Assembly: GCA_963663225.1 (NCBI GenBank)
Contig: OY760142.1
Coordinates: 1,632,001 to 1,696,000 of the forward strand
Direction: 5' to 3'
DNA: 64,000 nt
From: Nitrospirota bacterium
Lineage (GTDB): Bacteria; Nitrospirota; UBA9217
Of the stretch, positions 2,969-18,358 are shown one piece after another. The translations under genes were made by a program, and so were the position numbers. The notes below the pieces were generated by a model. It had not been told where the DNA came from. It ran no database searches and was given only the letters and a program-made list of their open reading frames with translations. How positions within the stretch are numbered: position 1 is the first letter of the stretch; the number at the start of each line of letters is the position of its first letter.

Positions 2969-3991
2969 TCAGGCCTTGCCAGCGAGGCGTCTCGCCTCCT
3001 CGATGACTACGTCTTCCTGTGTAGCCACGACCTTGCGCTCCCCCAGACGAAGCACAAGTTTCCGCGGGTCGCACCCGTATTCCTGGGCGGCACGTTTTAT
3101 GGGCAGGACATACCCGCCGTAAACGCATGCATAGCCCATCATGATCGAATCGTTGTCGACAGTAGGCATGGGCACCTTCGCCAAATTGGGATATTTGTTC
3201 AATTCCGCTACAAGAGTTGCTGCGGCGTCCAAAATGCCGAAGAGGTCGACTTCCGTGGGAAATCCCCCCCTCTTGAGCGCGGCCACCAGCGTTTCGGTTT
3301 GGGCATTGCCGGCCCCGCCGCCGAATCCCTTCAGACTTCCATCCACATAGGCAGCCCCTGCCTCGACCGCCGCAAGCGAATTGCCGATCGCCAACCCCAG
3401 GTTATTGTGGGCATGGAATCCCACCGGTATTTTTACCGCCTGGCGTACCGCCGCGATGTATGCCTTGACCTGGTGGGGCACCAAATACCCTTGAGAGTCC
3501 GCCAAGTTGATATACTGTGCGCCGTAAGACTCCATCTTCCTCGCTTCCTCGGCGATACGTTCCGGAGAAGCCATGCCGAACGAGATCAGATAACCGACTG
3601 CGAGCATATTCAATTTTCTGGCGAGCTGGATGTGCTGTTCAGTTATGTCCGCCTCCGTGCAGTGGCACGCGACCCTTGCCACCGTGACGCCCAAATCATG
3701 GGCCTGTTGCAGGTCATCCATCGTTCCGAAACCGGGTATCAAGAATATTGCTACCTTCGCTTTCTTTACCGAGGAGACCACGGACTTGAGCAACTCCGCG
3801 TCGGGGGCGGCTGTCCTCCCAACGTGGATGGAACTTCCTCCCGATCCATCGCCGTGACCGACTTCGATCATGTCCACACCGGCGGCTTCGAGAGCCGTCG
3901 CCAGCTTGGACATCAACACGGGCGAGAACTGCTGACGGACGGTATGATTGCCATCGCGAAGCGTAACATCTACAACAGTAAGCTTATCCAT
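2969..3991 (-). CDS. dmpG: 4-hydroxy-2-oxovalerate aldolase (DmpG/MhpE family)
   Basis: DVTLRDGNH, IEVGHGDG, HCTEAD, GFHAHNNLGLA and C-terminal V..QED motifs. Confidence 0.92.
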   Translation of the reverse strand: MDKLTVVDVTLRDGNHTVRQQFSPVLMSKLATALEAAGVDMIEVGHGDGSGGSSIHVGRTAAPDAELLKSVVSSVKKAKVAIFLIPGFGTMDDLQQAHDLGVTVARVACHCTEADITEQHIQLARKLNMLAVGYLISFGMASPERIAEEARKMESYGAQYINLADSQGYLVPHQVKAYIAAVRQAVKIPVGFHAHNNLGLAIGNSLAAVEAGAAYVDGSLKGFGGGAGNAQTETLVAALKRGGFPTEVDLFGILDAAATLVAELNKYPNLAKVPMPTVDNDSIMMGYACVYGGYVLPIKRAAQEYGCDPRKLVLRLGERKVVATQEDVVIEEARRLAGKA

Positions 3992-4874
3992 TGTTTGTCT
4001 TCCTTTCCGTCAAGAGACTCTCCGCGTAGCGCTCAGCAACGTTAACAGCCGCAGCGGTAATGATATCGAGGTTTCCGGCATACGGGGCCAGATAGTCGCC
4101 CGCGCCGGTCACTTCGATGCAGGTCGTGAAATGATCGCCGTCCAGGAAAGGCTCGACCGTAATCTTGTATCCGGGAACATACGATTTGATCTTCTCAGCC
4201 ATGGCCATAACCGAGTCATGGATGTTCTTCTCGTCCGCCGGAAGATCAACCGTGACATAGACCGTGTTGCGCATGATGATGGGCGGATCAGCGGGATTGA
4301 GCACGATGATGCTTTTCGATTTTTTCGCACCGCCGATGTCGTGAACGCTCCTGGCCGTGGTGCGCGTAAACTCATCGATATTATGTCTGGTGCCTGGACC
4401 GGCGCTAAGGCTTGCGATAGTGGATACGGTTTCCGCATAGTGGACAGGGCTGACCTGGTTGATGGCAGCCACGATCGGCACTGTCGCTTGTGCACCGCAC
4501 GAAACGAGATTGACATTGGGCTTCGTTGAATGCTCTTGGAGATTCACGACAGGGATGACACCCGGACCTACGGCGGCTGGAGTCAAATCAACGGCGATAA
4601 TGCCCGCTGCCTTAAGGCGTGGTGCATGTGCGAGGTGAGACCGCGCCGAAGTCGCGTCGAACACCAATTTGATTTTCCCATTATTGTGGAGGATGCCCTC
4701 GATCCCGTCCACGCAGGTTTCATAACCAAACTTGCATGCACGCGCCAAGCCCTCCGAGGCGGGATCTATGCCCGCGACCATCTTCAGTTCGAGTAGCGCG
4801 CTTCGGCGTAACTTGTACATAAGGTCCGTACCGATATTTCCTGACCCCAGGACTGCAACAGGCAATTTTGCCAT
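3984..4874 (-). CDS. dmpF: Acetaldehyde dehydrogenase, CoA-acylating (DmpF/MhpF family)
   Basis: GSGNIGTDL, DLTPAA, NVNLVSCGAQAT (catalytic Cys), SAGPGTR.NIDEF, YAGNLDI; overlaps the dmpG start. Confidence 0.94.
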   Translation of the reverse strand: MAKLPVAVLGSGNIGTDLMYKLRRSALLELKMVAGIDPASEGLARACKFGYETCVDGIEGILHNNGKIKLVFDATSARSHLAHAPRLKAAGIIAVDLTPAAVGPGVIPVVNLQEHSTKPNVNLVSCGAQATVPIVAAINQVSPVHYAETVSTIASLSAGPGTRHNIDEFTRTTARSVHDIGGAKKSKSIIVLNPADPPIIMRNTVYVTVDLPADEKNIHDSVMAMAEKIKSYVPGYKITVEPFLDGDHFTTCIEVTGAGDYLAPYAGNLDIITAAAVNVAERYAESLLTERKTNNG

Positions 4875-5090
4875 ACAATTCCTCCCTTGTGCTATGTTAT
4901 GTCATCAAGCAGCGGCGAGAGCTTCGCGACACAAACACCCTTCGCTTTCGAATCATGTTTCTTTTGCATATGAAACCTATCGGTCAAGATTGAGATCGCT
5001 GGACGGTGGCCCATCCGGCGTGCGTCGCGCGATTTTTAAACCGATCAGGCACATTCACAATGATCAACGGTGCCACTATAATAAAACGAT

Positions 5091-6023
5091 TCAATCTCCC
5101 TCTGCGCATTTAGCCGCAACATAGTCTTTAAGCGATCGGACCTTTTCGTCACTGAGCTTTGCTTCTGCCATGCAATAATCCCGGCCAAGGAACTCGTACT
5201 TGGATTTGCCGATCCGGTGATACGGCAGGAGTTCGCAACTCACCTTCTTCATTCCTTTGATGAAGGAGAGAATTTCGCCGATTTCCTCTTCTGAATCGTT
5301 GAGGCCGGGAATCAGCGGTATTCTGGCGAGTATGTGAAGCTGGGGAAACGCAGCTCTCAGTTTCCTGAAATTTTTGAGAATCAGTTCATTCGAAACACCG
5401 GTAAAGTTCTTGTGCTTGGTGTCGTTCATGGTCTTGATATCAAAAAGAATAAAGTTAAGGTGGCGGCCGACTTCTTCAAGAACGCCCCAGTCCGCGAATC
5501 CGCATGTTTCAATCGTACAGTCAATATGCCGACGCCGTGCCTCACGAAGAAGCGCCAGGGTGAATTCCGGCTGCATCAGCGGCTCACCTCCGCTGATCGT
5601 CAGGCCCCCGCCGGAACGGGCATAAAAGGCGCTGTCCGCCTCCACGATCTTGAGCACCTCAGGAACCGACATGTGCGTACCAAAGATGTGCAGTGCCTGT
5701 GATGGGCAGATGTTCACGCAGGCAAAGCAGCTGCTGCAGATCTCGCGGTTAATCGTGATCGTTCCATTTTTTGAAAGCCCGATTGCTTTCTCGCCGCACA
5801 CCTCATTGCACATGAAGCATTCCTGGGCACCGATGCACTTATTGGGATTGTATGCGAGTTCAGGCGACAGGCGCTGTGATTCGGGATTGCAGCACCATTC
5901 ACAGCGAAGCGGACAGCCCTTCAAAAACACGATGGTACGTATACCGGGTCCGTCGTGCAATGAATAATGCTGTATATTGAATACGCAACCCTTTATTATG
6001 CTGTCGGGCTGGGTCAATGCCAT
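5091..6023 (-). CDS. Glycyl-radical enzyme activating enzyme (IslB-like) with ferredoxin insert
   Basis: HDGPGIRTIVFLKGCPLRCEWCCNPE radical SAM motif plus two Cys-rich ferredoxin motifs; GGGAGG RBS before ATG 6023. Confidence 0.93.
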   Translation of the reverse strand: MALTQPDSIIKGCVFNIQHYSLHDGPGIRTIVFLKGCPLRCEWCCNPESQRLSPELAYNPNKCIGAQECFMCNEVCGEKAIGLSKNGTITINREICSSCFACVNICPSQALHIFGTHMSVPEVLKIVEADSAFYARSGGGLTISGGEPLMQPEFTLALLREARRRHIDCTIETCGFADWGVLEEVGRHLNFILFDIKTMNDTKHKNFTGVSNELILKNFRKLRAAFPQLHILARIPLIPGLNDSEEEIGEILSFIKGMKKVSCELLPYHRIGKSKYEFLGRDYCMAEAKLSDEKVRSLKDYVAAKCAEGD

Positions 6024-6097
6024 CCGCATCCTCCCGTGCTGCAAGCCCTGCAGCCGCTGATGACGGCAGCAGGGTAATGTGAAGTTGAACATGAAGA

Positions 6098-8581
6098 TTA
6101 GATTATCGTATGTTCCGTCCTGGCGATCAGGTCGTCCTGAAGGTCCGGAGACAGGTCGGTAAAGTAAGCGCTGTAGCCGGCGATGCGGACGATCAGACTG
6201 CGGTACTTGTCAGGATCTTTTCTGGCAGCCAGCAGGGTCGCCTTGTTAATGACGTTGAACTGGACGTGCCAGAGTTTCAGATCGCACCAGGTCCTGATGA
6301 AAGCAACCAGTTTGCGCGTTCCCTCATCACCGGCCATGATTGAAGGTGTGAATTTAATATTGAGCAGGCGGGCAGCACGCTCCCGGTAATCGTAGTTTTT
6401 CGAATGGTAGTTTGAAAGCAGCACGGCAGTGGGCCCCTTCGCGTCGAATCCCTGGGAGGCCGACGATCCGTCTGACAGCGGTGTATACGCTTTCCGACCG
6501 CAGGGGGACGCGCTCACGACTTTGCCGAAGGGAACATGCGATGTGAAGGGGACATAACGCAGATCGAGGTGAATGCCGAGCTCTTTGGAATATTTCTTTG
6601 TATACTCAAGACAGACCCTGTCCAGGTCCTTTGCGATCGCATCAGCATATTCATTGTTGTTCCCGTACTTGGGCGCATTGGAGAGCATCCGGCGCACGGC
6701 CTCTTTCCCCTCGAAATTCGCCTTCATCGCCTCGATCAGTTCGTTCATCGTGAGCCGTTTGTCTTCAAAGACGAGTTTTTTGATCGCCGCGAGCGAATCG
6801 ACGACCGTTCCATATCCCATAAACTCGAAGTACCCGAGATCAATGCCGCCCGGAATATGAGGGTTGTGCAGATCCATGCACTCTCTCATGCAGATATCGT
6901 GCAGTGCGCTGCCTGTCGGCCACGCGAAGTGTTTGGCGCGCAGATTGTTAATGACGTGCTGCTGAATGAATGCGTGGCGGAGGAAATTCATGTGCTGCGC
7001 AAGATATGCGTTCCAGAACTCGTTCCACGACGGGAAGGCGGCCGGATCGCCCGTCGAGAGGCCGATTTGTTCATCGCCGTGCAGCAGCATTTTGCCGTTG
7101 TACATGGTCATTTCCAGGGCTGCGGCAAAATTGATGTACGCGCAGGGGCTCGTGTAGGTGTCAAGGTTCGGCATGCGGCATTCCGAGCAGCCTGAAACGG
7201 CATAGTCGTACGCATGGTCGAACGGCGCGCCCTTTGCGAGCAGCAGCGGTATGACCTCTTCATCATTGATGAGCTTGGGGAATCCTGATCCTTCCTTGAT
7301 CGTTTCGGCGACCTCATGCAGGAACCGTTCCGGCGCCCGCGTATGGATCCTTGCCGCCAGATCGGGATAGTGCAGTGGAAATTCGCGCTTGGATTTAAGG
7401 AAGAGATAGGACAGATCATTGGTCGCATCGCGCCCGTCACGGGTCTGTCCTCCGATGGTCACAGCCTCCCAGTGAGCATACCCTTCATTAAAGGCGCCGC
7501 CGGTCGGAGAAATATAGAGGTCGATGAACTGGGCCATGCCTACCCACATGCACTCAAGGAGCTCGAGCGTCTCAAGCTCAGTCAGCGTTCCTTCCTCCCT
7601 GTCTTTGCTGAAGTACGGATACAGATACTGGTCCATGCGGCCGTTGGAGATAATGGTCCCGGTTTTCTGCTCCATACGGGAGAATATCTGGGCAAACCAT
7701 TGAGACTGCATCGCTTCCCTGAACGTGCGCGCAGGGTGCTCCGGCACCCATTGGCATCGCGCAGCGATCTCAACGAGCTCCTTTTTTCGGATTGGATCGG
7801 TTTCGTTCTCCGCGAGCTTTGACGCAAGCAGCGCATGGCGCCTTGCCCAATGAATGATCGCATCGCAGGTAATGACGATCGCCTGGAGGTACGGCATTTT
7901 TTCCATGTTGTCCACGGGACTCATCGGATCGAGTGAGTCCAGCCGCCTCTGGGCGTCTTCCCTGATGCCGCCAAACCCGTGTGTGAGCACCTTCGCGTAA
8001 TCATGCACCCACTGGATGGAAGATCTGAACGAAGCGGTTTCATTGACGATGAAGCGCGACTTGAGGGGGTCGGCCGGATCGTAGGTGAGCTTCAGGGTTT
8101 CTTTTGGCAGTGACTTCGTCAGGTTCTCATGGAAGGTCTTCCCTTTCCAGTAGGGAGCGATATCCTCGACCACCGCTCGTGCATCCGCGGCGGAAATTTC
8201 AAAGGGAGACTCTACCCTGCTCGGCAGCTGTACAATCGCGAGGTCGAGAAAATCCCCGTCAAGTTCGGGATAGAGAATTCCATAACGTCCTTGGCAGCCC
8301 GCGCGGCCGGCAAGCAGCTGTTTTTCGTCTATGTACACGGTGATGTTTTCGGCTATGTGTTTCATGGCCTTGGCCCACCTGAGAATAAGTGGCTGGCCTT
8401 CGGTTTCCTTCATCGATTCCGTGAAATACTTTGCGCGTTCGATATCAATACGGGGCTTCACGGTCTGAATACTCTTCAGTATCTGGTACGCCCTCGGACG
8501 GCCGTGAAAGTTCTCTTTTCCCAGTCGTTCTTCTTGAATGCGCTGTTCTTGTGGTGAAAGTACTGTACAACAGTCTGTCAT
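6098..8581 (-). CDS. islA: Glycyl radical enzyme of the isethionate sulfite-lyase (IslA/IseG) clade of C-S lyases
   Basis: RIAGYS glycyl loop, SGCSEC Cys loop, and [59 protein letters not shown] segments that match IslA as recalled; sulfonate ABC and TauE nearby. Exact substrate not established. Confidence 0.85.
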
Positions 8582-8660
8582 GGTATTTTTACCCCCTTCT
8601 AGGCTTTCTTTTCCAAGCCTCCGCTATCTGAGCATGACTACTTCTCATTGTGTATATTAA

Positions 8661-8678
8661 AAGCAAGAGTCATGCCTG
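8661..8678 (-). promoter_or_regulatory. Sigma54 -24/-12 promoter for the GRE operon
   Basis: Minus strand CAGGCATGACTCTTGCTT = GG-N10-GC, 80 nt upstream of the GRE start. Confidence 0.8.
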
Positions 8679-8945
8679 AATTGAGATAAGTATGTCTCTG
8701 TGTGCGGGATTCTATTCCTGCGTCCGGATGAACAGGTGTTGGTGACGTAGTGATTGAACATTACTAAAATAGTAAGCAGCGCTATGACGCACCTGACGCG
8801 CAGGAGCCATCCCGCTAAAATATCCGGTAAATTCTCTTATTTTCTGGAGGATTGCTGAGCAATGATAGAGGATAATTGCAGAGGAATGGCGTTGACTTTA
8901 GGAATGCCACTCTTTCGAGAGATGGGAGGTAAAAAAACGATAACG

Positions 8946-10385
8946 CTATACGATCTCGCGGCCGTTTATCTTTGGTCGCACGAGGCTGTATTTCTTCAAT
9001 TTTTCATACAATGTAGCCCTCGATATGTCAAGAGCGCGGGCTGAACGAACCATGTTCCATTCCTCGCGGTTCAGCGTATCAAGAATCAGCTGGCGCTCAT
9101 TCAAATGGCGCATCGCAGAGAGAGGGTTATGTCCTGAACACGGCAGTTCCGGTTCCGCTGTGGCAATACTTACGATCTCGGACGGCAGATCTTTTATCTC
9201 GATGGTGTTGCCGAGGCAAAAACTTGCGGCGCGTTCTATGACATTTCTCAGTTCGCGGACATTCCCGGGCCAGTTATATCGCATGAGAATATCCATCGCG
9301 TCACTCGAAAAATTCAGATTGCCATTGAGCCGGTCAAGCATACTTCGGGCTATAATGGGGATGTCTTCGCGCCGCTCGCAGAGCGACGGTATCGTCACGG
9401 CCATTGCACTTAATCTGTAATAGAGATCTTCCCGAAATTTTCCTTCACGGATCATGGCCTTCAGATTGCGGTTTGTGGCGACCACGAGCCTGAAATCCAC
9501 TCTCACCGGGTGGGTGGAGCCGAGGCGAGATATCATTTTGTCTTCGAGTATTCTGAGCAGTTTCACCTGCGCAGAAAGCGGCATCTCTCCAACCTCGTCC
9601 AGAAAGAGCGTCCCTTTGTTGGCAAGCTCTATCTTGCCCATTTTCCCTTCTTTTCTTGCGCCGGTAAAGGCGCCGGTCGAATACCCGAAGAGTTCTGATT
9701 CAAACAGTTCATGAGGGATGGCACCGCAGTTGATGCAGACAAACGGGCCATCAGCGCGCGTGCTTGCGACATGGAGTGCATTGGCAAAGAGCTCTTTTCC
9801 GACGCCGGTAACGCCCTGAATCAGAATAGGAGGGTCGGTGCGAGCATACATCGCAATCAGCTCTTTCGCGCGTGTAATTGCCGCACTTTTTCCCAGGATG
9901 TCATCAAGCGAGTATCGTGCGGACAGAACGCTCTTGATCTGTTCCTTAAATAACTTTACTGTTCGTCCCAACTGCTCGATCTTTGCCGCTGTTGCCTTGA
10001 GTTCACTGGGATCACTAAAGAGCGCCTGCGAGATCATGCCGCATGCCACACCTTGATTTGTCATGACGGGAATCCTGTTGACGATGAGTGTTTTGCCATG
10101 ACCGTCTGTGCTGAGAGGACCGAGATCTCCAAGCTCCGCTTTGCCCGACTGTATGACGATTGGCGCCCTCGTCAAAGGTATAAAATCCTTCACAGGCCTT
10201 CCTATGGCGTCCTCGGGCGTAACGCCGAGATATTCAGCGTACGCTTTATTGATAAATCGTATTATGCAATTGGTGTCACAGAAATAGATTCCAGTCGGCA
10301 GCGCATTGAAGATCGTATAGAGCATCTCCGGTGGAAAGCATACTAATTCGTCACGTTCTGTCACTGATTGCCTCCGTTTTCCCAT
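8946..10385 (-). CDS. PAS-domain sigma54-dependent transcriptional activator (bEBP)
   Basis: N-terminal PAS, GVTGVGKE Walker A, ESELFGY..GAFTGA, WPGNVREL, C-terminal Fis-type HTH. Confidence 0.95.
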   Translation of the reverse strand: MGKRRQSVTERDELVCFPPEMLYTIFNALPTGIYFCDTNCIIRFINKAYAEYLGVTPEDAIGRPVKDFIPLTRAPIVIQSGKAELGDLGPLSTDGHGKTLIVNRIPVMTNQGVACGMISQALFSDPSELKATAAKIEQLGRTVKLFKEQIKSVLSARYSLDDILGKSAAITRAKELIAMYARTDPPILIQGVTGVGKELFANALHVASTRADGPFVCINCGAIPHELFESELFGYSTGAFTGARKEGKMGKIELANKGTLFLDEVGEMPLSAQVKLLRILEDKMISRLGSTHPVRVDFRLVVATNRNLKAMIREGKFREDLYYRLSAMAVTIPSLCERREDIPIIARSMLDRLNGNLNFSSDAMDILMRYNWPGNVRELRNVIERAASFCLGNTIEIKDLPSEIVSIATAEPELPCSGHNPLSAMRHLNERQLILDTLNREEWNMVRSARALDISRATLYEKLKKYSLVRPKINGREIV

Positions 10386-10456
10386 ATGTATTAATGGATA
10401 TGGATGCGTTCTGCGCAGAATTCTTAATCAAACCATTATACAATATTTCGAAAAAA

Positions 10457-10492
10457 TGTCCAGATGCCCTGACATGTCAAGAAATCCATACA
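10457..10492. promoter_or_regulatory. Candidate tandem bEBP binding sites
   Basis: TGTC-N10-GACA immediately followed by TGTC-N10-TACA in the divergent intergenic region. Confidence 0.45.
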
Positions 10493-10884
10493 GACATTCA
10501 GGACAATTAATTATTTGTTTTGGTACGTACTTGCCTACTATCTAAGCTTAAGAAGCCGCGACTATTCTTATCTTCAATGTTCCAAGATGGCGTGATGTAA
10601 GGTGTTTTTTGCGTACAACTAAATGTAGATATACGAAACTTGTAATTTTATTCATAGGTATTTGACGGATTAAGTTCTTGATCGCTGATTCCCTCTATTC
10701 CGGATATCTGTCTTGCTTTTTGTAAAATATGTACGGTTATGTCTGACTATGCAAAACGTTCACCATATTGCCAAAATGTTAAGGCCCGGTGTTCTCTTTA
10801 TTTATTATATTGAAATTAAAAGATTTATAGTCTCTCTGACCGTAATGGAAGGTCATGGCATCTCGAGACGAATCCATGATATTA

Positions 10885-10900
10885 TGGCATTCATCTTGCT
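10885..10900 (+). promoter_or_regulatory. Sigma54 -24/-12 promoter for the ABC operon
   Basis: TGGCATTCATCTTGCT = TGGC-N8-TGC (GG-N10-GC), about 180 nt upstream of the binding-protein gene. Confidence 0.82.
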
Positions 10901-11078
10901 CTATAGCTTTAAACGATGCCATTATTGGTACGCTCTGGCCACCACTAATCACTATGACCATGCCTTGTTTTTTATGAGAACCGACAGTCCTGGATGGTCA
11001 GCACGTCCAAGCTAAAAGCTGTGCTACGGTAGTTTTTATAATCAGCAATTTATATAAATAAAAAAGGAGGACGGGGGA

Positions 11079-12188
11079 ATGAAAAAAAGCAGATTGCTAT
11101 TCGTGTTGTTTGCTATTATGCTGTGTTTCATAAGTGTGCCGGGGGCCGTTTCGGCACTGGATAAGATTATCGTCGGATTTCAGCCCTACGATACCATCTC
11201 GTATCAGGTAGCAGTGAACCAGGAACTGGGCATATGGAAGAAATATTTCCCGAAGGGTGTTGAAGTCGAATTCCTGCCGGCGCTTCAGGGTTCAATCATC
11301 TCAAACAATCTGCTTGCTGGCAAGACTCATATCGGCTATATGAGCGTTATGCCAGCCACCTTGGCCGCCACGAAGCCGGAACAGGCAAAGATGAAGATGG
11401 TTGCGAGCTTGGGAATGTCCGATGGCATGCGCTGCTCGCTGCTCCTGGTCAGGAAGGACGCTCCTCAGTTCAAGAGCCAGGAAGAGGCCATCAGGTGGCT
11501 TGACGGCAAGATAGTCGCAGCGCCCAAGGGCAGCGCTGCTGATCAGTATTTGCTGATGCTCTTCGACAAGTACAAAATTAAGCCGAAAGAATATCTCAAC
11601 CAGTCGATAGAAGTCATCGGCAGTAACTTCCGCATTAAGAAGCTTGACGCTGCGGCAATGTGGGAACCGACCATTTCACGTGTCGGCGACCTGGTCGGCG
11701 AGGGGCTGGTCCGCATTGCGGCTACGGGCACTGCGGTAAAAAATCCGGACCTGGGGATACTTATTATGCGCGCTGATTTTGTCGAGCAGAACCCGGAACT
11801 TGCCGAGGCATGGATTAAGTCCGAACTTGAGGCCCAGCAATATCTTGTGGATCCAAAAAATTATTCCAAGGTCATCGATATGGTAGCCAAATACGCAACC
11901 GGCATGCCGAAACGTGCTCTTTGGTATTCTATCTATGGACAGATTCCCGCCGCCGTAGGAGGCACAAAGATGCGCGAATGGAAACCATTCATCTTTGACA
12001 ATAAGGTTCTAAAAAATATAAACGATGTCTATACATTCCTTTATAAGGAAAAAAGAACGACTATTGACAAACCGTTGGCCGGTTCGATAGATGATTCAAT
12101 CGCCAAGAAAATCCTCAAAGAAAAGAAGATTAAATCCCCGATCGGCGTAATTCACGGGCAGCCGCCTTCAGCAGATCCGTTTAAATAG
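11079..12188 (+). CDS. ABC transporter substrate-binding protein, NitT/TauT (sulfonate/nitrate) family
   Basis: Signal peptide, GKIVAAPKGS and DAAAMWEP motifs; AAGGAGG RBS. Confidence 0.88.
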   Translation: MKKSRLLFVLFAIMLCFISVPGAVSALDKIIVGFQPYDTISYQVAVNQELGIWKKYFPKGVEVEFLPALQGSIISNNLLAGKTHIGYMSVMPATLAATKPEQAKMKMVASLGMSDGMRCSLLLVRKDAPQFKSQEEAIRWLDGKIVAAPKGSAADQYLLMLFDKYKIKPKEYLNQSIEVIGSNFRIKKLDAAAMWEPTISRVGDLVGEGLVRIAATGTAVKNPDLGILIMRADFVEQNPELAEAWIKSELEAQQYLVDPKNYSKVIDMVAKYATGMPKRALWYSIYGQIPAAVGGTKMREWKPFIFDNKVLKNINDVYTFLYKEKRTTIDKPLAGSIDDSIAKKILKEKKIKSPIGVIHGQPPSADPFK

Positions 12189-12214
12189 GAAATTAAATAA
12201 GTATGGGGTGATTC

Positions 12215-13111
12215 ATGCAGACAAAAGAGATAGCATTACAGGAAAAAGAGGTCGCGGCTCAGGATATTCAGGACATTAAAGTATCCGCGATAAACATCTT
12301 CTTTTTCCGATTAAAGCTCTGGCTGAAAAGTCCCACACCGTATCTGATACTGCTGGGTCTTACCCTTTTGCTCGTTGCATGGTGGCTGGCAACCGAGGTC
12401 TGGCAGCTTCCCCGTTTTGACAAGCTGCCAGGCCCCGTTATTGTCGTCAAGGAATGGGTGTCCAGGGATCCGTCGTATGGAATATCTATCTATACGCCGG
12501 AATATTACGAGCACATCTGGAGGAGCGTCCTGCGTGTCCTTGAGGCCTTTGGACTTGCTACTCTCCTGGGCGTGCCGCTTGGCCTCTTTATGGGCTGGAA
12601 AAAAACCTTCAAGGATTATACGTTCCCGGTCATGGAGATACTGAGACCCATCCCGATGCTTGCCTGGGTACCGCTGGCAATTCTGATGTGGCCCGAGCGC
12701 GAAATGGCGATCATTTACCTCACGTTTCTTGCAGCGTTCTTTGCGACAACGCTCAACACACTGCTCGGCGTCGAATCCATTGACGAATCATATTTCAGGG
12801 CAGCACGATGCCTCGGGGCAAAAGCGCATCACATCTTTTTCCGGGTCGTTATTCCGGGTGCGCTGCCTTTTATTTTCACCGGTTTGCAGATTAGCATGGG
12901 AGTTTCATGGTTTTCTCTTGTTGCCGGTGAAATGCTTGCAGGTGAGTATGGTCTGGGCTATCTCATCTGGAACTCATTCATTCTCGTGCAATACCCCGTC
13001 ATCGTCATAGCAATGGTGACGCTCGGTGTCATCGGATGGACCAGCAGTGCGCTTATCCGTTTTGTGGGGACACTCCTCATGAAATGGCAGTCACGGGAAT
13101 CATCTTTGTGA
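12215..13111 (+). CDS. ABC permease, TauC/SsuC type
   Basis: LRPIPMLAWVP, EAA-loop-like AARCLGA, GLGYLI. Confidence 0.9.
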   Translation: MQTKEIALQEKEVAAQDIQDIKVSAINIFFFRLKLWLKSPTPYLILLGLTLLLVAWWLATEVWQLPRFDKLPGPVIVVKEWVSRDPSYGISIYTPEYYEHIWRSVLRVLEAFGLATLLGVPLGLFMGWKKTFKDYTFPVMEILRPIPMLAWVPLAILMWPEREMAIIYLTFLAAFFATTLNTLLGVESIDESYFRAARCLGAKAHHIFFRVVIPGALPFIFTGLQISMGVSWFSLVAGEMLAGEYGLGYLIWNSFILVQYPVIVIAMVTLGVIGWTSSALIRFVGTLLMKWQSRESSL

Positions 13112-13119
13112 GGTTTATT

Positions 13120-13998
13120 ATGACTAGTACACAACCTATATTATCGCCGGCCACTTCAGGGACAATCTCAGATGCGCGGGTCAGCGGACAAATAAGCATC
13201 AGAAACGTAACAAAGATCTATGATCCCGAAGGTGCCAATGTTCTTGCCCTCGATAATTGTTCGCTCGAAATTCAGGCCGGCGAGTTCTGCGTTGTCGTCG
13301 GCCCGTCCGGATGCGGAAAAACAACGCTTCTGAATGCTATTGCGGGCTTTCATGACATAACGTCCGGGCAGATCGATCTCGACGGTGAACTCCTCTGTTC
13401 CAAAGACAGACAGGCCGAGCCCGGAGCAGATCGTATTGTTGTTTTCCAGCAAGGTGCACTTTTCCCCTGGTATACGGTTCTCGAAAATGTACTGTACGGG
13501 CCTTCGGTACAGGGTAAAATGAAAGGGATGAAAGCCCGGAAGGCAGCAGAGGAGATTCTTGCGCAGATGGGCCTGAAAGGCATTCTGCACAGTTATCCGA
13601 GCGAAATATCGTCGGGCATGCGGCGGCGCGTCGAGATAGCGCGTGCTATGATGAACAATCCGAAAATATTGCTGATGGACGAACCATACCGTGCCATGGA
13701 TGCGCTCACCAAAACGATCATGCACAAAAATCTTCTTGATGTATACGATAGATCAAACAAAACTATTTTTTTCATTACGCATGACCTTGAAGAGGCCATC
13801 TTTCTCGGAACCAAAGTTGTTGTTATGACAACGCGGCCCGGCAAGATCAAGAAAGTCATCGATGTCGAACTCCCCAGGCCACGCGATTTTAGAATCCTCA
13901 CATCGGAGCGCTACCTCGAACTCAAACAGGAAGCAATTGAGTCGGTGCACGAAGAGGCGAAAAAGGCGTTCGAGGCAGGAGAGCGGGAGCTTGCATGA
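13120..13998 (+). CDS. ABC ATPase, TauB/SsuB type, with degenerate signature ISSGM
   Basis: GPSGCGKTT, LLMDEP, ITHDLEEA; ATG at 13120. Confidence 0.9.
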   Translation: MTSTQPILSPATSGTISDARVSGQISIRNVTKIYDPEGANVLALDNCSLEIQAGEFCVVVGPSGCGKTTLLNAIAGFHDITSGQIDLDGELLCSKDRQAEPGADRIVVFQQGALFPWYTVLENVLYGPSVQGKMKGMKARKAAEEILAQMGLKGILHSYPSEISSGMRRRVEIARAMMNNPKILLMDEPYRAMDALTKTIMHKNLLDVYDRSNKTIFFITHDLEEAIFLGTKVVVMTTRPGKIKKVIDVELPRPRDFRILTSERYLELKQEAIESVHEEAKKAFEAGERELA

Positions 13999-14026
13999 TG
14001 GCCGGCATGCCGTAGGAGGCAGAACA

Positions 14027-14842
14027 GTGACAACAAACAAGCCTGCAGTGTTCATGGGAATAAACCTTCGTAAACTACGCAAAAAAATATTCAGCAAAAC
14101 GACCCTTCGAGGTATTGTTGCGATAATAGTAACAGGTATTTTATGGGAAGTATGCGCGCGTCTCCAGGTTCCGATCATAGGCATGATCCCCGCACCAAGC
14201 TCAGTGTACGGTTCTCTGATAGAACAGATCCAGGACAAATCCTACTGGGAATGCTGGATAGTCAGTTACGACCGGGTCTTGACGGGCTTTGTCATAGCCA
14301 TGATAGTCGGAATCCCGCTTGGCCTGGTCATGGGACTGAGCCGCCATTTCAGGGACCTGACCTTTCCGACACTGGAGATCCTCAGGCCTATTCCACCCCT
14401 TGCGTGGGTGCCGACCGCGGTAATCTTCTGGCCAACGCCGGAAATGAGCATGATTTTTGTGACGTTTTTAGGTGCTTTTTTTACCATGGTACTGAATATC
14501 CTTGGCGGCGTAAAAAGTGTGGATATCCGCCATGTGCGCTCTGCCCAATCTCTGGGGTCGAGCAAAAAAGATATATTCTGGCGCATAGTCCTGCCTGCCA
14601 CGCTTCCAAGCCTTTTTACAGGCATGACCGTTGGAATGGGTATAACGTGGGCTGTTGTTGTGGCTGCTGAAATGATTGCAAGCCGTTCTGGCCTTGGTTT
14701 TTTAACCTGGAAATCCTATGTTGCCGGCGACTACCCGGTTATCGTGATAGGTATGATCAGCATAGGGATAGCCGGCTATATCTCGAGCGCAGTTATCCGT
14801 TTCTTGGGGGATCGTCTTACCCCTTGGCTCAAGATCATTTAG
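14027..14842 (+). CDS. Second ABC permease, TauC/SsuC type
   Basis: LRPIPPLAWVP, SAQSLGS, VVAAEMIA..GLG; GTG start after AGGAGG. Confidence 0.9.
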   Translation: MTTNKPAVFMGINLRKLRKKIFSKTTLRGIVAIIVTGILWEVCARLQVPIIGMIPAPSSVYGSLIEQIQDKSYWECWIVSYDRVLTGFVIAMIVGIPLGLVMGLSRHFRDLTFPTLEILRPIPPLAWVPTAVIFWPTPEMSMIFVTFLGAFFTMVLNILGGVKSVDIRHVRSAQSLGSSKKDIFWRIVLPATLPSLFTGMTVGMGITWAVVVAAEMIASRSGLGFLTWKSYVAGDYPVIVIGMISIGIAGYISSAVIRFLGDRLTPWLKII

Positions 14843-14872
14843 TAGCGTACTTTACGACGAGGTGGCACGTAT

Positions 14873-15742
14873 ATGAACGGACATCACGAACCGACCGCGC
14901 CGCAGAGCGGCAATATGCAGGTCAATGCGATATCGAAATCCTTCGGTATCGGACCACTGCGGCAACAGGTTATAGAGAACTGCACCTTTACGCTCGAAAA
15001 AGGGAAGTTGACAGTCCTTATCGGACCTTCCGGATGCGGCAAGACGACGCTCGTCAACCTGCTTGCCGGCTACGAAACACCTGATTCCGGAAGCATTACT
15101 GTTGACGACGTGCCCGTGAAGGGGCCCGGTAAGGACCGCCTCGTCGTCTTTCAGGAAACTGCGCTTTTCCCCTGGATGACGACGTTTCAAAATGTTGTGT
15201 ACGGTCCGATGGTCCGCGGCGAAAAGAATAAAAAAGAGCTCGAAGAAGAAACCATGCATCTGCTGCACAAAGTGGGGCTGGCTGATTTTCGGGACAAATA
15301 TCCGATTCAGCTGTCAGGAGGCATGCAGCGGCGCTGCGAGCTCGTGAGAGCGCTTATTAACAGGCCCAAGATTATGCTGATGGATGAGCCGTTCAGGGGT
15401 CTTGATGCCATGACCCGTGAACTCATGCAGGAATACTATGTACGGCTGTTTGAAGAGAACCACCTGACCAACCTTTTCATCACCTCGGAACTGGAGGAGG
15501 CGATTTTCCTTGCCGACAGGCTTATCATCCTTACCAACCGTCCCGCAAGCACGAGGACCGTGATGGAGATAGACCTGCCGAGACCGCGCGAGTTCAAGGT
15601 TCTCGCAACACGGGAATACCTGCACTATAAGCAGCAGGCGCTTGAGATTCTTCATGAAGAGGCGATGAAGGCGTTTTCAAGCGGAAGCAAAGCTGCAGTT
15701 TCAGATTTTCTTGAAGCATATTCTGAAGTCGAACCCCGATAA
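14873..15742 (+). CDS. Second ABC ATPase, H-loop His replaced (ITSE)
   Basis: GPSGCGKTT, LSGGM, MLMDEPF, ITSELEEA. Confidence 0.9.
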   Translation: MNGHHEPTAPQSGNMQVNAISKSFGIGPLRQQVIENCTFTLEKGKLTVLIGPSGCGKTTLVNLLAGYETPDSGSITVDDVPVKGPGKDRLVVFQETALFPWMTTFQNVVYGPMVRGEKNKKELEEETMHLLHKVGLADFRDKYPIQLSGGMQRRCELVRALINRPKIMLMDEPFRGLDAMTRELMQEYYVRLFEENHLTNLFITSELEEAIFLADRLIILTNRPASTRTVMEIDLPRPREFKVLATREYLHYKQQALEILHEEAMKAFSSGSKAAVSDFLEAYSEVEPR

Positions 15743-15760
15743 GGCTGCTGTGGTGACCAG

Positions 15761-15955
15761 ATGGATAAATCACATGCCGTGCTTCGCGCTATCATGATCA
15801 CGACGGCCGTATTGGCGGCTGTATTCTCCCTTCTTGCAAGCGTGGCCCGCGCCCGCGGAGCGCCGGGTAAAATTGTCACCATGCTTTATTACTCTGCGTA
15901 CGGCCTCATGTTTATCAGCATTATTCTCTTTATCCTTATCGGCATGAATGGATGA
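15761..15955 (+). CDS. Small two-helix membrane protein
   Basis: 64 aa with two hydrophobic segments, directly after the ATPase in the operon. Confidence 0.6.
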   Translation: MDKSHAVLRAIMITTAVLAAVFSLLASVARARGAPGKIVTMLYYSAYGLMFISIILFILIGMNG

Positions 15956-16088
15956 CTCCTTGCGTGAGACAGCCGGTGCGAGTCTTGAACATGGGTTGAG
16001 GCAGGCCGTACCGATTCCGTATGCTATCCTTCGCCGGTGAGAATGCCGCGCTTCCTACTTTTGCTGTTAAGAACTCGGAGAATGGTTT

Positions 16089-16901
16089 TTGAGTGACATT
16101 GTATATGCCAGCATAATCATCGCGATCGCTTCTTTTTCGCAGTCCATCGCAGGCGTCGGCTTCGTGATGGTTGCCACGCCGTTTCTGCTAGCCATCCTGG
16201 ATGTAAAAGACACGGTACTGATAACGTTTGCTCTCTCTGTCATATGTCAGATTCTGATTGTCTGCAGACACTGGCGCATGGTACATCCGCAAATGTTCCT
16301 GAATTTTGTGCTTGGAAGCATGTTCGGTGCGTTTCCCGGCCTTTGGCTCTTTTCGGTTGCAAGTCTCTCGACTCTGAAATTCATTATAGGCCTTACGCTT
16401 CTTTCAATTTCTTCTTTCACGCTCTATAAGCTGAAGTCCACATGGAATATGATCGAGAACACTACATCATACAGGAGAACACCCGAATCTCCGTTCGTAT
16501 GGAATATAAGGGCTCTCAGGCGAGGCATCACCGACCTTCAGGGACAGGCGCAACTCTTCGTCGGATGCGCGGCGGGTTTTTTCGGGCCAAGCATTGGAAT
16601 GCCGGGCATCCCCCTCACGGTATATTTTAGTGCAGTTAATATGGATAAGGACGTCGCGCGGAGCACGACCCTTTCCTTTTTTATTGTTATCTGCATGGTC
16701 ACGCTTCTGGCAAATTACAGCGCAGGCAATATCACCCCCACAGTCATCCGTGTTGCACCTCTTCTGGTACCGTCGGTCTTGGTTGGCATGGTGGTGGGAA
16801 ACTTGGTTTTTCCCAAAATATCGCAGCGATGGTTTCAGTTAATACTGAATCTGATTATACTGTATTCTGCATGCAAAATTCTGTTCGAATACTGGCAGTA
16901 G
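16089..16901 (+). CDS. TauE/SafE family sulfite exporter
   Basis: QSIAGVGF..VATPFL, GFFG...GMPG.P motifs and about 8 hydrophobic segments; TTG start after GGAG. Confidence 0.82.
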   Translation: MSDIVYASIIIAIASFSQSIAGVGFVMVATPFLLAILDVKDTVLITFALSVICQILIVCRHWRMVHPQMFLNFVLGSMFGAFPGLWLFSVASLSTLKFIIGLTLLSISSFTLYKLKSTWNMIENTTSYRRTPESPFVWNIRALRRGITDLQGQAQLFVGCAAGFFGPSIGMPGIPLTVYFSAVNMDKDVARSTTLSFFIVICMVTLLANYSAGNITPTVIRVAPLLVPSVLVGMVVGNLVFPKISQRWFQLILNLIILYSACKILFEYWQ

Positions 16902-17239
16902 CATCTTTCTAGCTCAGCTGTGTCATAAATTCTATTGAAAAAGCATGATGATTCCTGGCGATTGGACAACTATGAAATGGACACCGCCAATTAGTAGATG
17001 ATTTTACTTAGGAATACCTTCCCTATTCAGTACAGTAGCCGCGCACCCTTCTGATTCCGCTTCCGCATTCTCGTAAGCTTCATTTTGGTTTTTTACTACC
17101 CGATTGTTTACAAACCTTGTTGTTATTCATATAGTATGTTATATTTTTTTAGCAATGGTTTTTCTCTGTTCATCATTGCAGACAACAGGTATTATCGGAC
17201 GACCTGTTTTATCGACATTTGGAAAGGAGAAGGATCACG

Positions 17240-18358
17240 ATGATTAAAGAAAAGGGATTAAGGACAGACATGCCTATCGCGCAGTATATGGCTCTGGCAA
17301 TTCAGCCGGCCATGGTGGGAACATTCAAGAGAGACAACATCAAAACCAACATCGACCATATCACCGACATCATCCGGGCCGGGTACTGGCTTGGCGGCAT
17401 TGAAATGCCGGTCAAATTGGCCGCAATCCCGGAAGGGGCATTGCAGGGATTCAACGATGAATTGATGGATCGGGACCATGTAGACTTTGCCAGAAATATG
17501 GCAATAGAAATTCCCGGCCCGGAAACGGACATGCTGGGGAAAATCGCGAAGGAATTCGATCTGTATGTGATTGCGCAGGCAAAAGTGAAGCACCCGAAAA
17601 TAAAAGACCGGTTTTTCAATTCGGCATTTTTGATCAACCCCGAAGGAGACGTGGTCCTGCAAAGCCATAAAATGCAGGTGTTCTGCCGGGAGCATTCGAC
17701 GGTGCCGCACGATGTATGGGACACATGGATGGAATTGTACGGATATGAAATGGATTCCATCTATGCCGTCGCCGACACGAATATCGGAAGAATCGGGCTG
17801 ATCTTTTGTCAGGAGGGAGACTATCCGGAACCTGCCAGGGGACTTGCCATGAACGGGGCGGAAATCATTTATCGTGCGAGCGCCCCCGAACCGGCGGTAT
17901 CCAGGGGATGGTGGGAAATTCAAAACAGGGCCCGGGCACTCGACAACACCTGTTACGTTGTCGCTCCCAATGTCGCCTCATATTTAGTGCATCCGGAGGG
18001 GACGGGTCCGGTGGACAATTTCGGCGGACAGTCCATGATCGTCCATTATGATGGACGTATCCTGTCTTCCGTTACGGGCGGCGCAAGCATTTATGCGGGC
18101 GGCATCATCGATATCGAATCTCTGCGGGAATATCGCGAGAGGTCGCTTTTCGGGAATTGGATGAAGGATCTGCGCACGGAACAATACAAGCTCATATACG
18201 AAACGCCCGTGTTTGAGAAAAATCTTTGCATGAACAGACCGCCGCTGAAGCATGCGCCGACCGATGACATTTACCGGGAGAGCATCAAACGGCTGATCGA
18301 CCGGGATGTATGGGCTAAAAGTTATAAAACCAAAATGAAGGAAAAAGAGCAAAAATAA
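17240..18358 (+). CDS. Carbon-nitrogen hydrolase (nitrilase superfamily)
   Basis: Glu-Lys-Cys triad contexts IPEG, SHKMQ, IFCQEG; NRARALDN. Confidence 0.88.
   Translation: MIKEKGLRTDMPIAQYMALAIQPAMVGTFKRDNIKTNIDHITDIIRAGYWLGGIEMPVKLAAIPEGALQGFNDELMDRDHVDFARNMAIEIPGPETDMLGKIAKEFDLYVIAQAKVKHPKIKDRFFNSAFLINPEGDVVLQSHKMQVFCREHSTVPHDVWDTWMELYGYEMDSIYAVADTNIGRIGLIFCQEGDYPEPARGLAMNGAEIIYRASAPEPAVSRGWWEIQNRARALDNTCYVVAPNVASYLVHPEGTGPVDNFGGQSMIVHYDGRILSSVTGGASIYAGGIIDIESLREYRERSLFGNWMKDLRTEQYKLIYETPVFEKNLCMNRPPLKHAPTDDIYRESIKRLIDRDVWAKSYKTKMKEKEQK

Follow-up and report, generated by a model that had tools for sequence, protein, structure and literature searches.

Radical desulfonation of isethionate by a glycyl radical enzyme (GRE) and its activase is known from Bilophila wadsworthia and Desulfovibrio (IslAB/IseGH; 7KQ3, 5YMR). 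Excerpts of the account of the Bilophila cluster place together an AdhE of the aldehyde dehydrogenase superfamily, Pta, a PduS homologue, EutQ, shell proteins, and an amidohydrolase (PMC8667426), and excerpts of a second report describe Desulfovibrio strains with TRAP transport and dehydrogenases encoded elsewhere (PMC6386719). DmpF and DmpG are known from aromatic and steroid meta-cleavage (DmpFG, BphIJ, MhpEF, and HsaFG; 1NVM, 4JN6, 4LRS, 8IH7). Here, we analyzed a 64,000-nucleotide stretch of a Nitrospirota bacterium genome (the window), in which an earlier note had pointed to an IslA-type C-S lyase cluster joined to DmpF and DmpG. The locus probably serves sigma-54-controlled respiration of isethionate, a C2 sulfonate, with DmpF taking acetaldehyde to acetyl-CoA in replacement of a microcompartment module. 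The pathway would be a known one, and what would be new is DmpFG as its acetaldehyde step; no paper in the literature searched describes the IslA-DmpFG pairing, so the note's word "undescribed" holds for the papers that were searchable.

Gene content and regulation

The locus spans positions 2969 to 16901 of the window, limits that are the exact ends of dmpG and tauE in the open reading frame list and in Pfam and NCBIfam scans. Genes for the GRE, its activase, DmpF, and DmpG are co-oriented on the minus strand, and a sulfonate-type ABC importer followed by TauE runs divergently on the plus strand, which confirms the gene content first proposed. Also as proposed, the scans detected no AdhE/EutE, BMC, or TRAP genes in 2969-16901 and no meta-cleavage genes within the locus. 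The features are as follows.

2969-3991, minus strand: class II pyruvate aldolase of the DmpG type, 340 aa, from a divergent subfamily linked to sulfonate loci (TIGR03217, 391.4 bits, cut-off 286; PF07836 DmpG_comm, 71.5)
3984-4874, minus strand: DmpF-type CoA-acylating acetaldehyde dehydrogenase, 296 aa (TIGR03215, 413 bits, cut-off 282)
4875-5090, minus strand: 216-bp spacer between the activase gene and dmpF, with a Shine-Dalgarno-like GGGAGG before the dmpF ATG
5091-6092, minus strand: IslB-like GRE-activating radical SAM enzyme, 333 aa (TIGR02494, 360.4 bits; PF04055 and ferredoxin-type cluster domains)
6098-8581, minus strand: IslA/IseG-like isethionate sulfite-lyase-type GRE, 827 aa (PF02901, 622.4 bits; PF01228, 95.9)
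8663-8677, minus strand: sigma-54-type promoter-like site aGGCATgactcTTGC, ~80 bp upstream of the GRE start (pattern search, 2 mismatches)
8946-10385, minus strand: sigma-54-dependent activator, PAS domain at the N terminus, receiver domain absent (PF00158, 223.1 bits; PAS families; HTH_8)
10885-10899, plus strand: sigma-54-type promoter-like site TGGCATtcatcTTGC, ~180 bp upstream of the binding-protein gene (pattern search, 1 mismatch)
11079-15742, plus strand: ABC importer, five genes in all (one binding protein, two permeases, two ATPases)
11079-12188, plus strand: NMT1/SsuA/TauA-superfamily binding protein (Pfam/NCBIfam)
12215-13111 and 13862-14842, plus strand: two permeases (Pfam/NCBIfam)
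13036-13998 and 14873-15742, plus strand: two ATPases (Pfam/NCBIfam)
16089-16901, plus strand: TauE/SafE-family anion permease (PF01925, 112.1 bits)

The activator gene, absent from the earlier list, lies between the two divergent operons and upstream of the GRE gene, and its product is the probable sensor and regulator of both. Copies occupy the same position in two related loci, L005 (79% identical) and L017 (73%), and the host genome contains rpoN (447.5 bits). Sigma-54-type pattern matches showed no excess across the whole window (49 found versus 69.9 expected), and the candidate site at 8663-8677 is marked out by its position only.

Identity of the glycyl radical enzyme

Compared with solved structures, the window GRE scores highest on IseG (5YMR, 1356.8 bits), then on IslA (7KQ3, 1257.5) and HpsG (6LON, 1199.5). 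In the alignment, the IslA residues R189, Q193, T312, W374, C468, E470, R678, V680, F682, and G805 are all kept, as are the motifs RYVPF and RIAGYSAYF; excerpts of PMC8473560 and PMC13450708 assign these IslA residues roles in sulfonate binding and catalysis. The Cys loop departs from characterized IslA at one Arg, which most other alignment rows retain. Judged by its pocket residues and best solved matches, the enzyme is of the IslA/IseG type, and its predicted substrate is isethionate.

Family models would allow another assignment, in which the GRE is HpsG, the DHPS sulfolyase, or acts on some other C3 sulfonate, and DmpFG would process the C3-derived product: the "HpsG" model NF048011 gives 1549.6 bits (cut-off 1000) and the HpsH activase model gives 463.5 bits for the window activase (cut-off 430). 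However, NF048011 does not discriminate, since all eight of eight IslA-clade GREs reach 1536 to 1580 bits on it, including one (L009) that matches solved IseG 5YMR at 1651.9 bits. At two named positions, where HpsG 6LON has Ile (RYVPI) and KASA, the window GRE has the Phe (RYVPF) and KTGT of IslA, and hydroxyacetone has no evident way into DmpFG. Relatives of the locus that bear dmpFG also hold genes that would feed isethionate: a SarD-like Fe-ADH is encoded in both L089 and L023 (its best NCBIfam match is SarD, at 448 and 428 bits, short of the 700-bit cut-off), and L089 also holds a Tpa-like aminotransferase. We consider a C3 substrate quite unlikely. The retention of every IslA pocket residue and the SarD-like and Tpa-like genes equally disfavor one option in the earlier note, a larger sulfonate needing an aldol step.

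Importer and anion permease

The importer probably takes up isethionate or another C2 sulfonate, to go by its family and its neighbors. The same five-gene importer (binding protein 55-88% identical) adjoins IslA in 9 of the 80 genome loci compared (the best 80 of 426 matches) and is also found in L088 and L095. "TauT-type," as it had been called, is right as to a sulfonate-type ABC importer and loose as a label, with the binding protein at 53-61 bits on TauA/SsuA models (cut-offs 163-304) and 40 bits on solved TauA. TauE copies stand in the same place in L005 (73% identical) and L017 (69%), and in L095 the gene adjoins that of the GRE. With dsrAB in the genome, it is doubtful that sulfite is disposed of mainly by export through TauE, as once suggested.

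Recurrence of the IslA-DmpFG pairing

Among the IslA loci from genomes (the best 80 of 426 matches), dmpF-dmpG lies behind the activase gene in two, L005 and L023, and 78 are without DmpFG. In metagenomes, 8 of the 12 loci whose DmpF is at least 77% identical have dmpFG immediately after an IslA activase gene, versus a GRE of any kind in 0 of 68 loci with more distant DmpF (0 of 38 among those that extend at least 4 kb upstream or at least 5 kb downstream). The pairing of DmpFG with IslA, by these counts, is not due to chance, and the co-occurrence on which the earlier note had staked its proposal is found in genomes and metagenomes alike. A Nitrospirota-like host is consistent with how the two nearest loci are labeled.

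DmpFG-linked GREs fall at three places on the GRE tree, and between the window and L023, dS is 0.53-0.58 for dmpFG and 3.3 (saturated) for the GRE. The dmpFG genes have joined IslA-type GREs independently, and the module is mobile, with low dS across phyla. It can also exist apart from islAB, as three informative close-DmpFG loci without a nearby GRE indicate: in L085 it adjoins dsrABC, in L087 a transposase lies near it, and L088 is a taurine-type cluster with the same importer.

This mobility, the transposase, the loci without a GRE, and the 216-bp spacer ahead of dmpF would also suit a reading in which adjacency has no functional meaning and DmpFG, expressed alone, is either an ordinary 4-hydroxy-2-oxovalerate module or a mobile cassette that arrived recently. 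The contrast between close and distant metagenome relatives and the three tree placements speak against it, as do the lack of a hydratase or other 4-hydroxy-2-oxovalerate source in any annotated locus and the fact that the only other acylating aldehyde dehydrogenase in the genome is a second DmpF; we hold such a bystander role to be very improbable. We found no terminator-like or promoter-like sites on the transcribed strand of 4875-5090, and the activase-dmpF gap is 69 bp in L005, while the genes abut or overlap in L089 and L095. We infer that the GRE and activase genes are co-transcribed with dmpFG.

Proposed replacement of a microcompartment module

The sister locus L017 shares its regulator, importer, TauE, GRE, and activase with the window. 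Past the activase, where the window has dmpFG, it encodes Amidohydro_2, PduS-like, EutQ, BMC shell, Aldedh, and PTAC (PduL) proteins, a gene set that bears out the claim that DmpFG stands instead of the usual aldehyde dehydrogenase and microcompartment. The window and L005 GREs are nested in a clade in which 7 of 12 rows are BMC linked, and four other loci (L089, L090, L093, and L097) retain between activase and dmpF a remnant of the amidohydrolase gene, only the first 106 of 309 residues. The best reading is that DmpFG holds the place, in locus and function, of the module of shell, PduP/EutE-type dehydrogenase, PduL, PduS, EutQ, and amidohydrolase in related loci.

The host genome contains no homologues of the L017 Aldedh, PTAC, BMC, EutQ, or PduS proteins, and the sole PF00171 match genome-wide is weak (52.9 bits, C1:2751192). 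No acylating aldehyde dehydrogenase was found beyond the two DmpF copies, the second of which, with its own DmpG, flanks a diol-dehydratase-like second GRE. As to meta-cleavage genes, the genome has only two FAA_hydrolase-family matches (C1:115337 and C1:1168595), both far from either dmpFG copy.

DmpF, DmpG, and the proposed pathway

DmpF is conventional, with only five clade-specific changes, 285-351 bits against solved relatives, and a Cys126 and GSGNIG motif that are (near-)invariant among 81 aligned DmpF sequences. The two genes overlap by 8 bp, dmpG beginning before dmpF ends, and a DmpF-DmpG heterodimer is predicted in this host; the deposition of the best solved DmpF relative, 7Z3S, as a single chain counts against it. 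DmpG is, from its alignment and tree, a divergent, strongly conserved subfamily with its catalytic residues kept: all 65 of 65 sequences have R12, D13, H16, H193, H195, Y287, and Y291, and its dN/dS of 0.055-0.176 (about 0.1) is as low as that of dmpF. The clade forms a long branch of its own (stem 0.76) and is set apart by 28 substitutions, each at a position on which at least 80% of 50 other DmpG sequences agree. They include the stretch that immediately follows the conserved Tyr (SSF.H changed to GGY.P) and a Leu-rich strand preceding the PG motif. That branch, and a sister (L118) that is again at a sulfonate-transporter locus, with a Rieske oxygenase and a sulfonate-type transporter, do not bear out the suggested co-option of DmpFG from aromatic catabolism.

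In the pathway we propose, isethionate would be taken up by the divergent ABC importer and its C-S bond split by the activated GRE into sulfite and acetaldehyde. Sulfite would be reduced by DsrAB, which the genome encodes, and DmpF, as a heterodimer with DmpG, would convert acetaldehyde to acetyl-CoA and NADH. Acetyl-CoA would then yield acetate and ATP via Pta-AckA, or enter a CODH/ACS route; pta adjoins ackA in the genome, and CdhC is present. Flux along this route is predicted from gene content, and DmpF(G) as acetaldehyde sink, the first of the earlier note's alternatives, is the best-supported reading.

A simple sink leaves the constraint on DmpG and its 28 substitutions unexplained, since DmpG would be dispensable if DmpF alone were needed. 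DmpG could instead be a working catalyst, performing a reversible aldol reaction of free acetaldehyde with pyruvate and passing acetaldehyde through the tunnel to DmpF as a shell-free substitute for a microcompartment, or acting on a sulfonated aldehyde such as sulfoacetaldehyde. Its invariant catalytic and metal residues, low dN/dS, greater divergence than DmpF, and presence in the taurine-type cluster L088 and, as a sister form, in L118 would fit this. Yet the pathway balances without an aldol step, no pyruvate-linked gene is conserved across loci, the pocket-lining status of the substituted positions comes from the BphI/DmpG literature rather than a model, and purifying selection is equally expected for an obligate structural partner of DmpF. 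A catalytic DmpG is a possibility that we rate well below the sink. In either case DmpG is intact and selected, and it may stabilize DmpF, supply a tunnel, or trap acetaldehyde by aldol addition.

Comparison with known systems

The locus shares with IslAB/IseGH the GRE and activase with all named sulfonate-pocket and catalytic residues, an adjoining PAS-domain regulator, a sulfite-respiring host with dsrAB, and the requirement that acetaldehyde become acetyl-CoA. Unlike those systems, it lacks the Bilophila and Desulfovibrio parts named above, in place of which it encodes DmpF/DmpG, an ABC importer, and TauE. HpsG belongs to the same GRE clade and has the same Arg/Gln/Arg sulfonate anchor, but differs in the Ile and KASA positions, and the window GRE scores lower on its structure than on those of IslA and IseG.

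With DmpFG, BphIJ, MhpEF, and HsaFG, the locus has in common the same two families, above NCBIfam equivalog cut-offs, the overlapping dmpF-dmpG order, the communication domain, the DmpF catalytic Cys, and the DmpG catalytic and metal residues. It differs in having no hydratase or ring-cleavage genes, in its anaerobic host, in its position behind a glycyl radical C-S lyase, and in the substituted, long-branched aldolase; furthermore, acetaldehyde here would come from outside the complex and not from the aldolase.

GRE-associated microcompartments (GRM), including the IslA-linked "GRMguf," differ from the locus in their shell, for which a BMC-domain search of the host genome gave 0 matches. They resemble it in the task of keeping acetaldehyde from a GRE eliminase out of the cytoplasm and making acetyl-CoA, and L017 performs it with a microcompartment in an otherwise matching gene set. 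Any containment of toxic acetaldehyde in this host would rely on a protein tunnel in place of a shell, in a pairing that recurs in other uncultured anaerobes.

Gene content and layout of the locus

An ORF list, together with Pfam and NCBIfam scans, bore out the gene content and coordinates that an earlier note on this DNA had proposed. Every gene it named is present; its list lacked one member, the sigma-54 activator.

Features of the locus and of the region beyond tauE (window coordinates)
3991-2969, minus: dmpG, its start overlapping the dmpF stop by 8 bp
4874-3984, minus: dmpF, separated from the activase by a 216-bp spacer
6092-5091, minus: radical-SAM activase of the glycyl radical enzyme (GRE)
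8581-6098, minus: GRE, 827 aa
8677-8663, minus: sigma-54-type promoter-like site, ~80 bp upstream of the GRE
10385-8946, minus: sigma-54 activator with an N-terminal PAS domain
10885-10899, plus: sigma-54-type promoter-like site, ~180 bp upstream of the binding-protein gene
11079-15742, plus (divergent): importer, comprising an NMT1/SsuA/TauA superfamily binding protein, two permeases, and two ATPases
16089-16901, plus: TauE
17219-18358, plus: CN-hydrolase, 379 aa, beyond tauE
18420-19127, plus: protein with the DapB C-terminal domain only (DapB-like), 235 aa, beyond tauE

Sigma-54-like matches are not in excess across the window, so it is position that singles out the two promoter-like sites; rpoN was found in the host genome. 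On the transcribed strand, a crude scan of the activase-dmpF spacer found no terminator-like or promoter-like site. The description of the importer as TauT-type was loose: its binding protein falls short of the TauA equivalog level (TIGR01729, 53.1 bits against a cut-off of 304.25), scores 40.3 bits against solved TauA, and is, on these scores, a TauA relative at the superfamily level only. The CN-hydrolase and DapB-like genes were ruled out as parts of the locus, as they are missing beyond tauE in the syntenic locus L005.

G+C is 0.46 to 0.52 over the regulator, importer, and tauE (window 8000-20000), compared with 0.53 to 0.56 in the GRE, dmpFG, and the flanks. A search of 63 further genomes from this family detected no IslA-type GRE (E up to 1e-250), and one of 300 other sampled genomes of the phylum detected no DmpG of the sulfonate-locus clade described below (E up to 1e-120). 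The locus is accessory, and its low G+C, combined with its absence from the 63 same-family genomes, suggests an acquired island of mixed origin.

The GRE is predicted to be an isethionate sulfite-lyase

The GRE carries a glycyl radical domain (PF01228, 95.9 bits) with the RVxG[FWY] motif, and its Cys loop, GCSE in alignments, fits CxE. Its best solved matches are IseG (5YMR, 1356.8 bits) and IslA (7KQ3, 1257.5 bits), followed by HpsG (6LON, 1199.5 bits); the next solved GRE reaches 528 bits. Aligned with 7KQ3 and 5YMR, it retains Arg189, Gln193, Arg678, Val680, Phe682, Trp374, Thr312, Cys468, Glu470, and Gly805 (B. wadsworthia numbering), to which excerpts of PMC8473560 and of a 2026 GRE review (PMC13450708) assign sulfonate-binding or catalytic roles in IslA. 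The sulfonate anchor, according to the PMC8473560 excerpt, consists of Arg189, Gln193, and Arg678, plus Val680, Phe682, Trp374, and Thr312.

HpsG residues were taken from the 6LON alignment and the review excerpt. HpsG has RYVPI and KASA, whereas IslA and the window GRE have RYVPF and KTGT; the latter thus lacks the HpsG-type pocket, enlarged to take an additional CH2OH group, in which Ile occupies the position of Phe682 and KASA replaces KTGT. Judged from the alignment, these two positions may set IslA versus HpsG specificity. RxVPF, like the other anchor motifs and KTGT, occurs in 76 of 77 related locus GREs (motif table plus the window), the genome locus L059 being the exception, with the HpsG-like Ile. 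The IslA-type assignment made by the earlier note thus stands, with IseG and IslA as best solved matches and every named pocket residue present, and we predict from sequence that this IslA/IseG-type enzyme would release sulfite and acetaldehyde from isethionate.

A different name is offered by NCBIfam, in which the top match is the HpsG-named NF048011 (1549.6 bits against a cut-off of 1000). In a calibration, all eight GREs tested from related loci scored 1536 to 1580 on this model; one of the eight, the GRE of a Nitratidesulfovibrio genome (L009), has 1651.9 bits against IseG 5YMR and 1579.8 on NF048011. A model that scores this IseG relative and other locus GREs equally high does not separate IslA from HpsG, and the label "HpsG / (2S)-3-sulfopropanediol dehydratase" was dropped after the calibration. 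Since the matches listed for the window GRE include no IslA-named model, isethionate lyases would be misnamed by automatic annotation; a gene mislabeled as a DHPS enzyme would in turn distort sulfur-cycle inferences from metagenomes. Both NF048011 and NF048010, the HpsG- and HpsH-named equivalog models, score IslA/IseG-type enzymes far above cut-off.

Separately, the MPNRD motif that follows the Cys loop (GRE residues ~466-477, window 7150-7180) keeps its Arg in most relatives, Desulfovibrionaceae loci included. At this position the window and L005 have Leu, and the genome loci L017 and L032 have Val.

DmpFG recurs behind IslA-type GREs and probably takes the place of the microcompartment

The note had proposed a search of other neighborhoods for IslA-DmpFG pairs, and such pairs do recur. 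From a scan of species-representative genomes with the window GRE, the best 80 of 426 relatives were used, and the window proteins were searched against these 80 loci by tblastn; gene calls in the fetched loci came from a longest-ORF script rather than a gene finder. Among these 80, bacterial microcompartment (BMC) shell genes occur in 21, an ALDH-family dehydrogenase of the L017 type in 16, PduL in 7, and dmpF plus dmpG behind the activase in 2. One of the two, L005, from a metagenome-assembled genome (MAG) labeled Nitrospiraceae, is syntenic with the window over the whole locus (GRE 85% and DmpG 84% identical); the other, L023, is from a MAG labeled Syntrophobacter (GRE 73%, DmpF 87%, DmpG 92%).

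A metagenome scan with the window DmpF gave at least 506 relatives; the best 80 loci were used, and 12 of these have a DmpF 77 to 92% identical to the window's (next best, ≤62%). In 8 of the 12 (L089 to L095 and L097), an IslA-type GRE and activase lie directly upstream; no GRE was found in the 68 other loci, of which 38 extend at least 4 kb upstream or at least 5 kb downstream. Four close-DmpF loci lack a GRE, of which L086 is too short to judge. L085 (2379-10919) has dmpFG 92 to 96% identical to the window's, followed by DUF6955, a TPR protein, dsrA, dsrB, a CobB/CobQ-like gene, and DsrC, with no GRE in the 2.4 kb available upstream of dmpFG. L087 has dmpFG with a divergent sigma-54/PAS regulator and a transposase, and no GRE was found there. 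L088, in which no GRE was found within 10 kb, encodes the five-gene importer of the window (76 to 80% identical), two class-III aminotransferases, an alanine racemase, a Glu-dehydrogenase-like gene, and ackA. Its taurine-type cluster of aminotransferases, alanine racemase, dmpFG, and importer is headed by a 1049-aa ORF (L088:3881-7030, plus) with no match in Pfam, NCBIfam, or PDB; in the Atlas, it falls only in unnamed clusters of ~1000-aa proteins, commonest in Thermodesulfobacteriota.

A comparison is offered by L017, from another MAG labeled Nitrospiraceae, which shares with the window the GRE (79%), activase, regulator (73%), importer (80 to 88%), and TauE (69%). Downstream, this locus has an Amidohydro_2 protein, a PduS-like flavoprotein, EutQ, a BMC shell protein, the ALDH-family dehydrogenase, and PduL. 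No homologues of its shell, dehydrogenase, PduL, EutQ, or PduS genes were found in the window's genome, a single contig of 3.26 Mb that is 99% complete. Genome-wide, there is no BMC domain (0 PF00936 matches), so a GRE-linked BMC is absent, and PF00171 has a single weak match. A TPP enzyme of L017 was considered as Xsc and rejected, its homologue in the window's genome being an acetolactate synthase beside ilvD.

In a FastTree phylogeny of 86 GREs, the window and L005 lie within a clade of 12 rows (support, 98), seven of them BMC-linked, and their sister is L017 plus L032. Further DmpFG-linked GREs occur at two other places, L089 to L097 together in a clade of eight rows and L023 beside a pair of unlinked loci. 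DmpFG linkage requires three changes on this tree, or two if well-supported branches alone count. The Amidohydro_2 protein (~300 aa) accompanies IslAB in 53 of the 80 genome loci by tblastn (e.g., L017:12786-13715 and the L009:5945-6265 region), and an excerpt of PMC8667426 includes a hypothetical amidohydrolase in the Bilophila cluster. In L089, L090, L093, and L097, the first 106 of 309 amidohydrolase residues remain between the activase and dmpF, a stub resembling a replacement scar. No such remnant was found in the window's activase-dmpF spacer, and the companion is missing from its genome.

The same genome has a second dmpF-dmpG pair (C1:461685-467154, on its single contig; cluster L083, 9047-16682). 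This cluster encodes an MFS transporter, dmpF', dmpG', an 811-aa GRE, an activase, an isochorismatase-family protein, two MtmB-family proteins, a corrinoid protein, and a GntR regulator. The best solved relatives of the 811-aa GRE are B12-independent glycerol dehydratase (731.8 bits) and propanediol dehydratase (687.4 bits); hence, both aldehyde-forming GREs of this shell-less genome adjoin a DmpFG pair. A comparable trio in Desulfitobacterium hafniense DCB-2 comprises acetaldehyde dehydrogenase (Dhaf_1244), aldolase (Dhaf_1245), and a PFL-like protein (Dhaf_1246), as given in an excerpt of PMC3306737.

A distinct and mobile DmpG lineage

Both proteins look intact. DmpF reaches the equivalog level for an acetylating acetaldehyde dehydrogenase (EC 1.2.1.10; TIGR03215, 413 bits against a cut-off of 282.25), and its catalytic Cys, C126, is invariant or nearly so in 81 sequences, as are G10, G12, and N13 of the N-terminal NAD-binding glycine motif. 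DmpG, with an HMGL-like barrel, scores 391.4 bits against 286 on TIGR03217 and has the communication domain (PF07836 DmpG_comm, 71.5 bits). All 65 DmpG sequences share R12, D13, H16, H193, H195, Y287, and Y291, which correspond to the catalytic Arg/His/Tyr and the Asp/His/His metal ligands of DmpG/BphI. The note's observation that the genes that normally supply DmpG are missing was upheld: no 2-oxopent-4-enoate hydratase or meta-cleavage gene was found in the window locus, L005, L023, L089, or L095, and the genome's two FAA_hydrolase matches are far from dmpFG.

A tree of 65 DmpG sequences groups the 13 sulfonate-locus proteins in a single clade (SH-aLRT, 92), which with those of the loci L118 and L160 makes a 15-row clade (support, 100) on a stem of 0.76 changes per site from the other 50, the genome's second copy among them. 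In DmpG, 28 columns with at least 80% conservation among the other 50 have a different residue in 12 to 13 of the 13 clade members, compared with only five such columns in DmpF. Between the window and eight relatives, dN/dS is 0.055 to 0.176 for dmpG and 0.083 to 0.178 for dmpF, so DmpG is not decaying. Between the window and L023, dS is 0.53 to 0.58 for dmpFG and 3.3 (saturated) for the GRE; this contrast, together with the reversed order of the GRE and DmpG identities to L023 and L005, indicates that the dmpFG cassette moved between islAB loci and, by record labels, between phyla.

DmpG may be an obligate partner or provide the tunnel, or it may actively trap acetaldehyde; the data agree with either role. 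The long stem, many substitutions, and tight conservation of DmpG are unexplained by a simple reading in which DmpF is the acetaldehyde sink. L118 (30-11059), in the sister branch, encodes IclR, dmpF, dmpG, Rieske oxygenase alpha and beta subunits, a Fer2/NAD-binding reductase, and a TauABC-like transporter, the permease of which is fused to a cNMP-binding domain; we take this layout to resemble oxygenolytic desulfonation of the methanesulfonate-monooxygenase type. This single locus hints that the wider DmpG clade serves desulfonation in general. An extended reading, which we consider unlikely, is that DmpFG of the sulfonate-linked clade substitutes for the BMC as a mobile module that needs no shell, with a derived DmpG in a new catalytic job, trapping acetaldehyde from desulfonating enzymes or acting on sulfoacetaldehyde and feeding DmpF by the inter-subunit tunnel. 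On this doubtful extension, the cassette could be plugged in behind varied desulfonation enzymes, namely those of three IslA lineages, of a GRE-less taurine-type cluster, and, in the sister branch, a Rieske oxygenase.

Proposed pathway in the host

Gene content, residue conservation, and comparative context point to the following route. Isethionate would enter via the ABC system, and IslA, once activated by IslB, would eliminate sulfite and leave acetaldehyde. DmpF would convert acetaldehyde, CoA, and NAD+ to acetyl-CoA and NADH. Sulfite would be reduced by DsrAB; dsrA and dsrB, for which the note had advised a check, are both encoded. Acetyl-CoA could yield ATP via Pta-AckA, or its acetyl group could be oxidized by CODH/ACS; pta adjoins ackA, and a CdhC-type acetyl-CoA synthase is also encoded. 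TauE, conserved in L005, L017, and L095, had been read as suggesting sulfite export; given a cytoplasmic Dsr, such export would be no more than a safety valve. A search of the host genome turned up no close Tpa or SarD (best, 36% and 33% identity), which speaks against taurine as a direct substrate here and makes isethionate the likely one.

Comparison with known systems

Full-text searches found no paper linking isethionate or IslA with DmpFG/MhpEF, in keeping with the earlier description of the arrangement as undescribed; supplementary neighborhood tables could hold such a link. Neither founding paper mentions an aldolase in its main text. We therefore rate this as a known isethionate pathway with a DmpFG variant that is, as far as searched, previously unreported.

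Isethionate and taurine respiration have been worked out in gut Desulfovibrionaceae. DmpFG would represent a second, recurrent solution for acetaldehyde, present in uncultured anaerobes that, going by their labels, belong to at least two phyla; a distinct DmpG subfamily is also defined here. The window and L017, near-matching loci with differing solutions, offer a natural experiment in compartment versus channel. In gut Desulfovibrionaceae, acetaldehyde passes to ALDH-type enzymes, often inside microcompartments, whereas the locus described here has a DmpF-type dehydrogenase locked to an aldolase.
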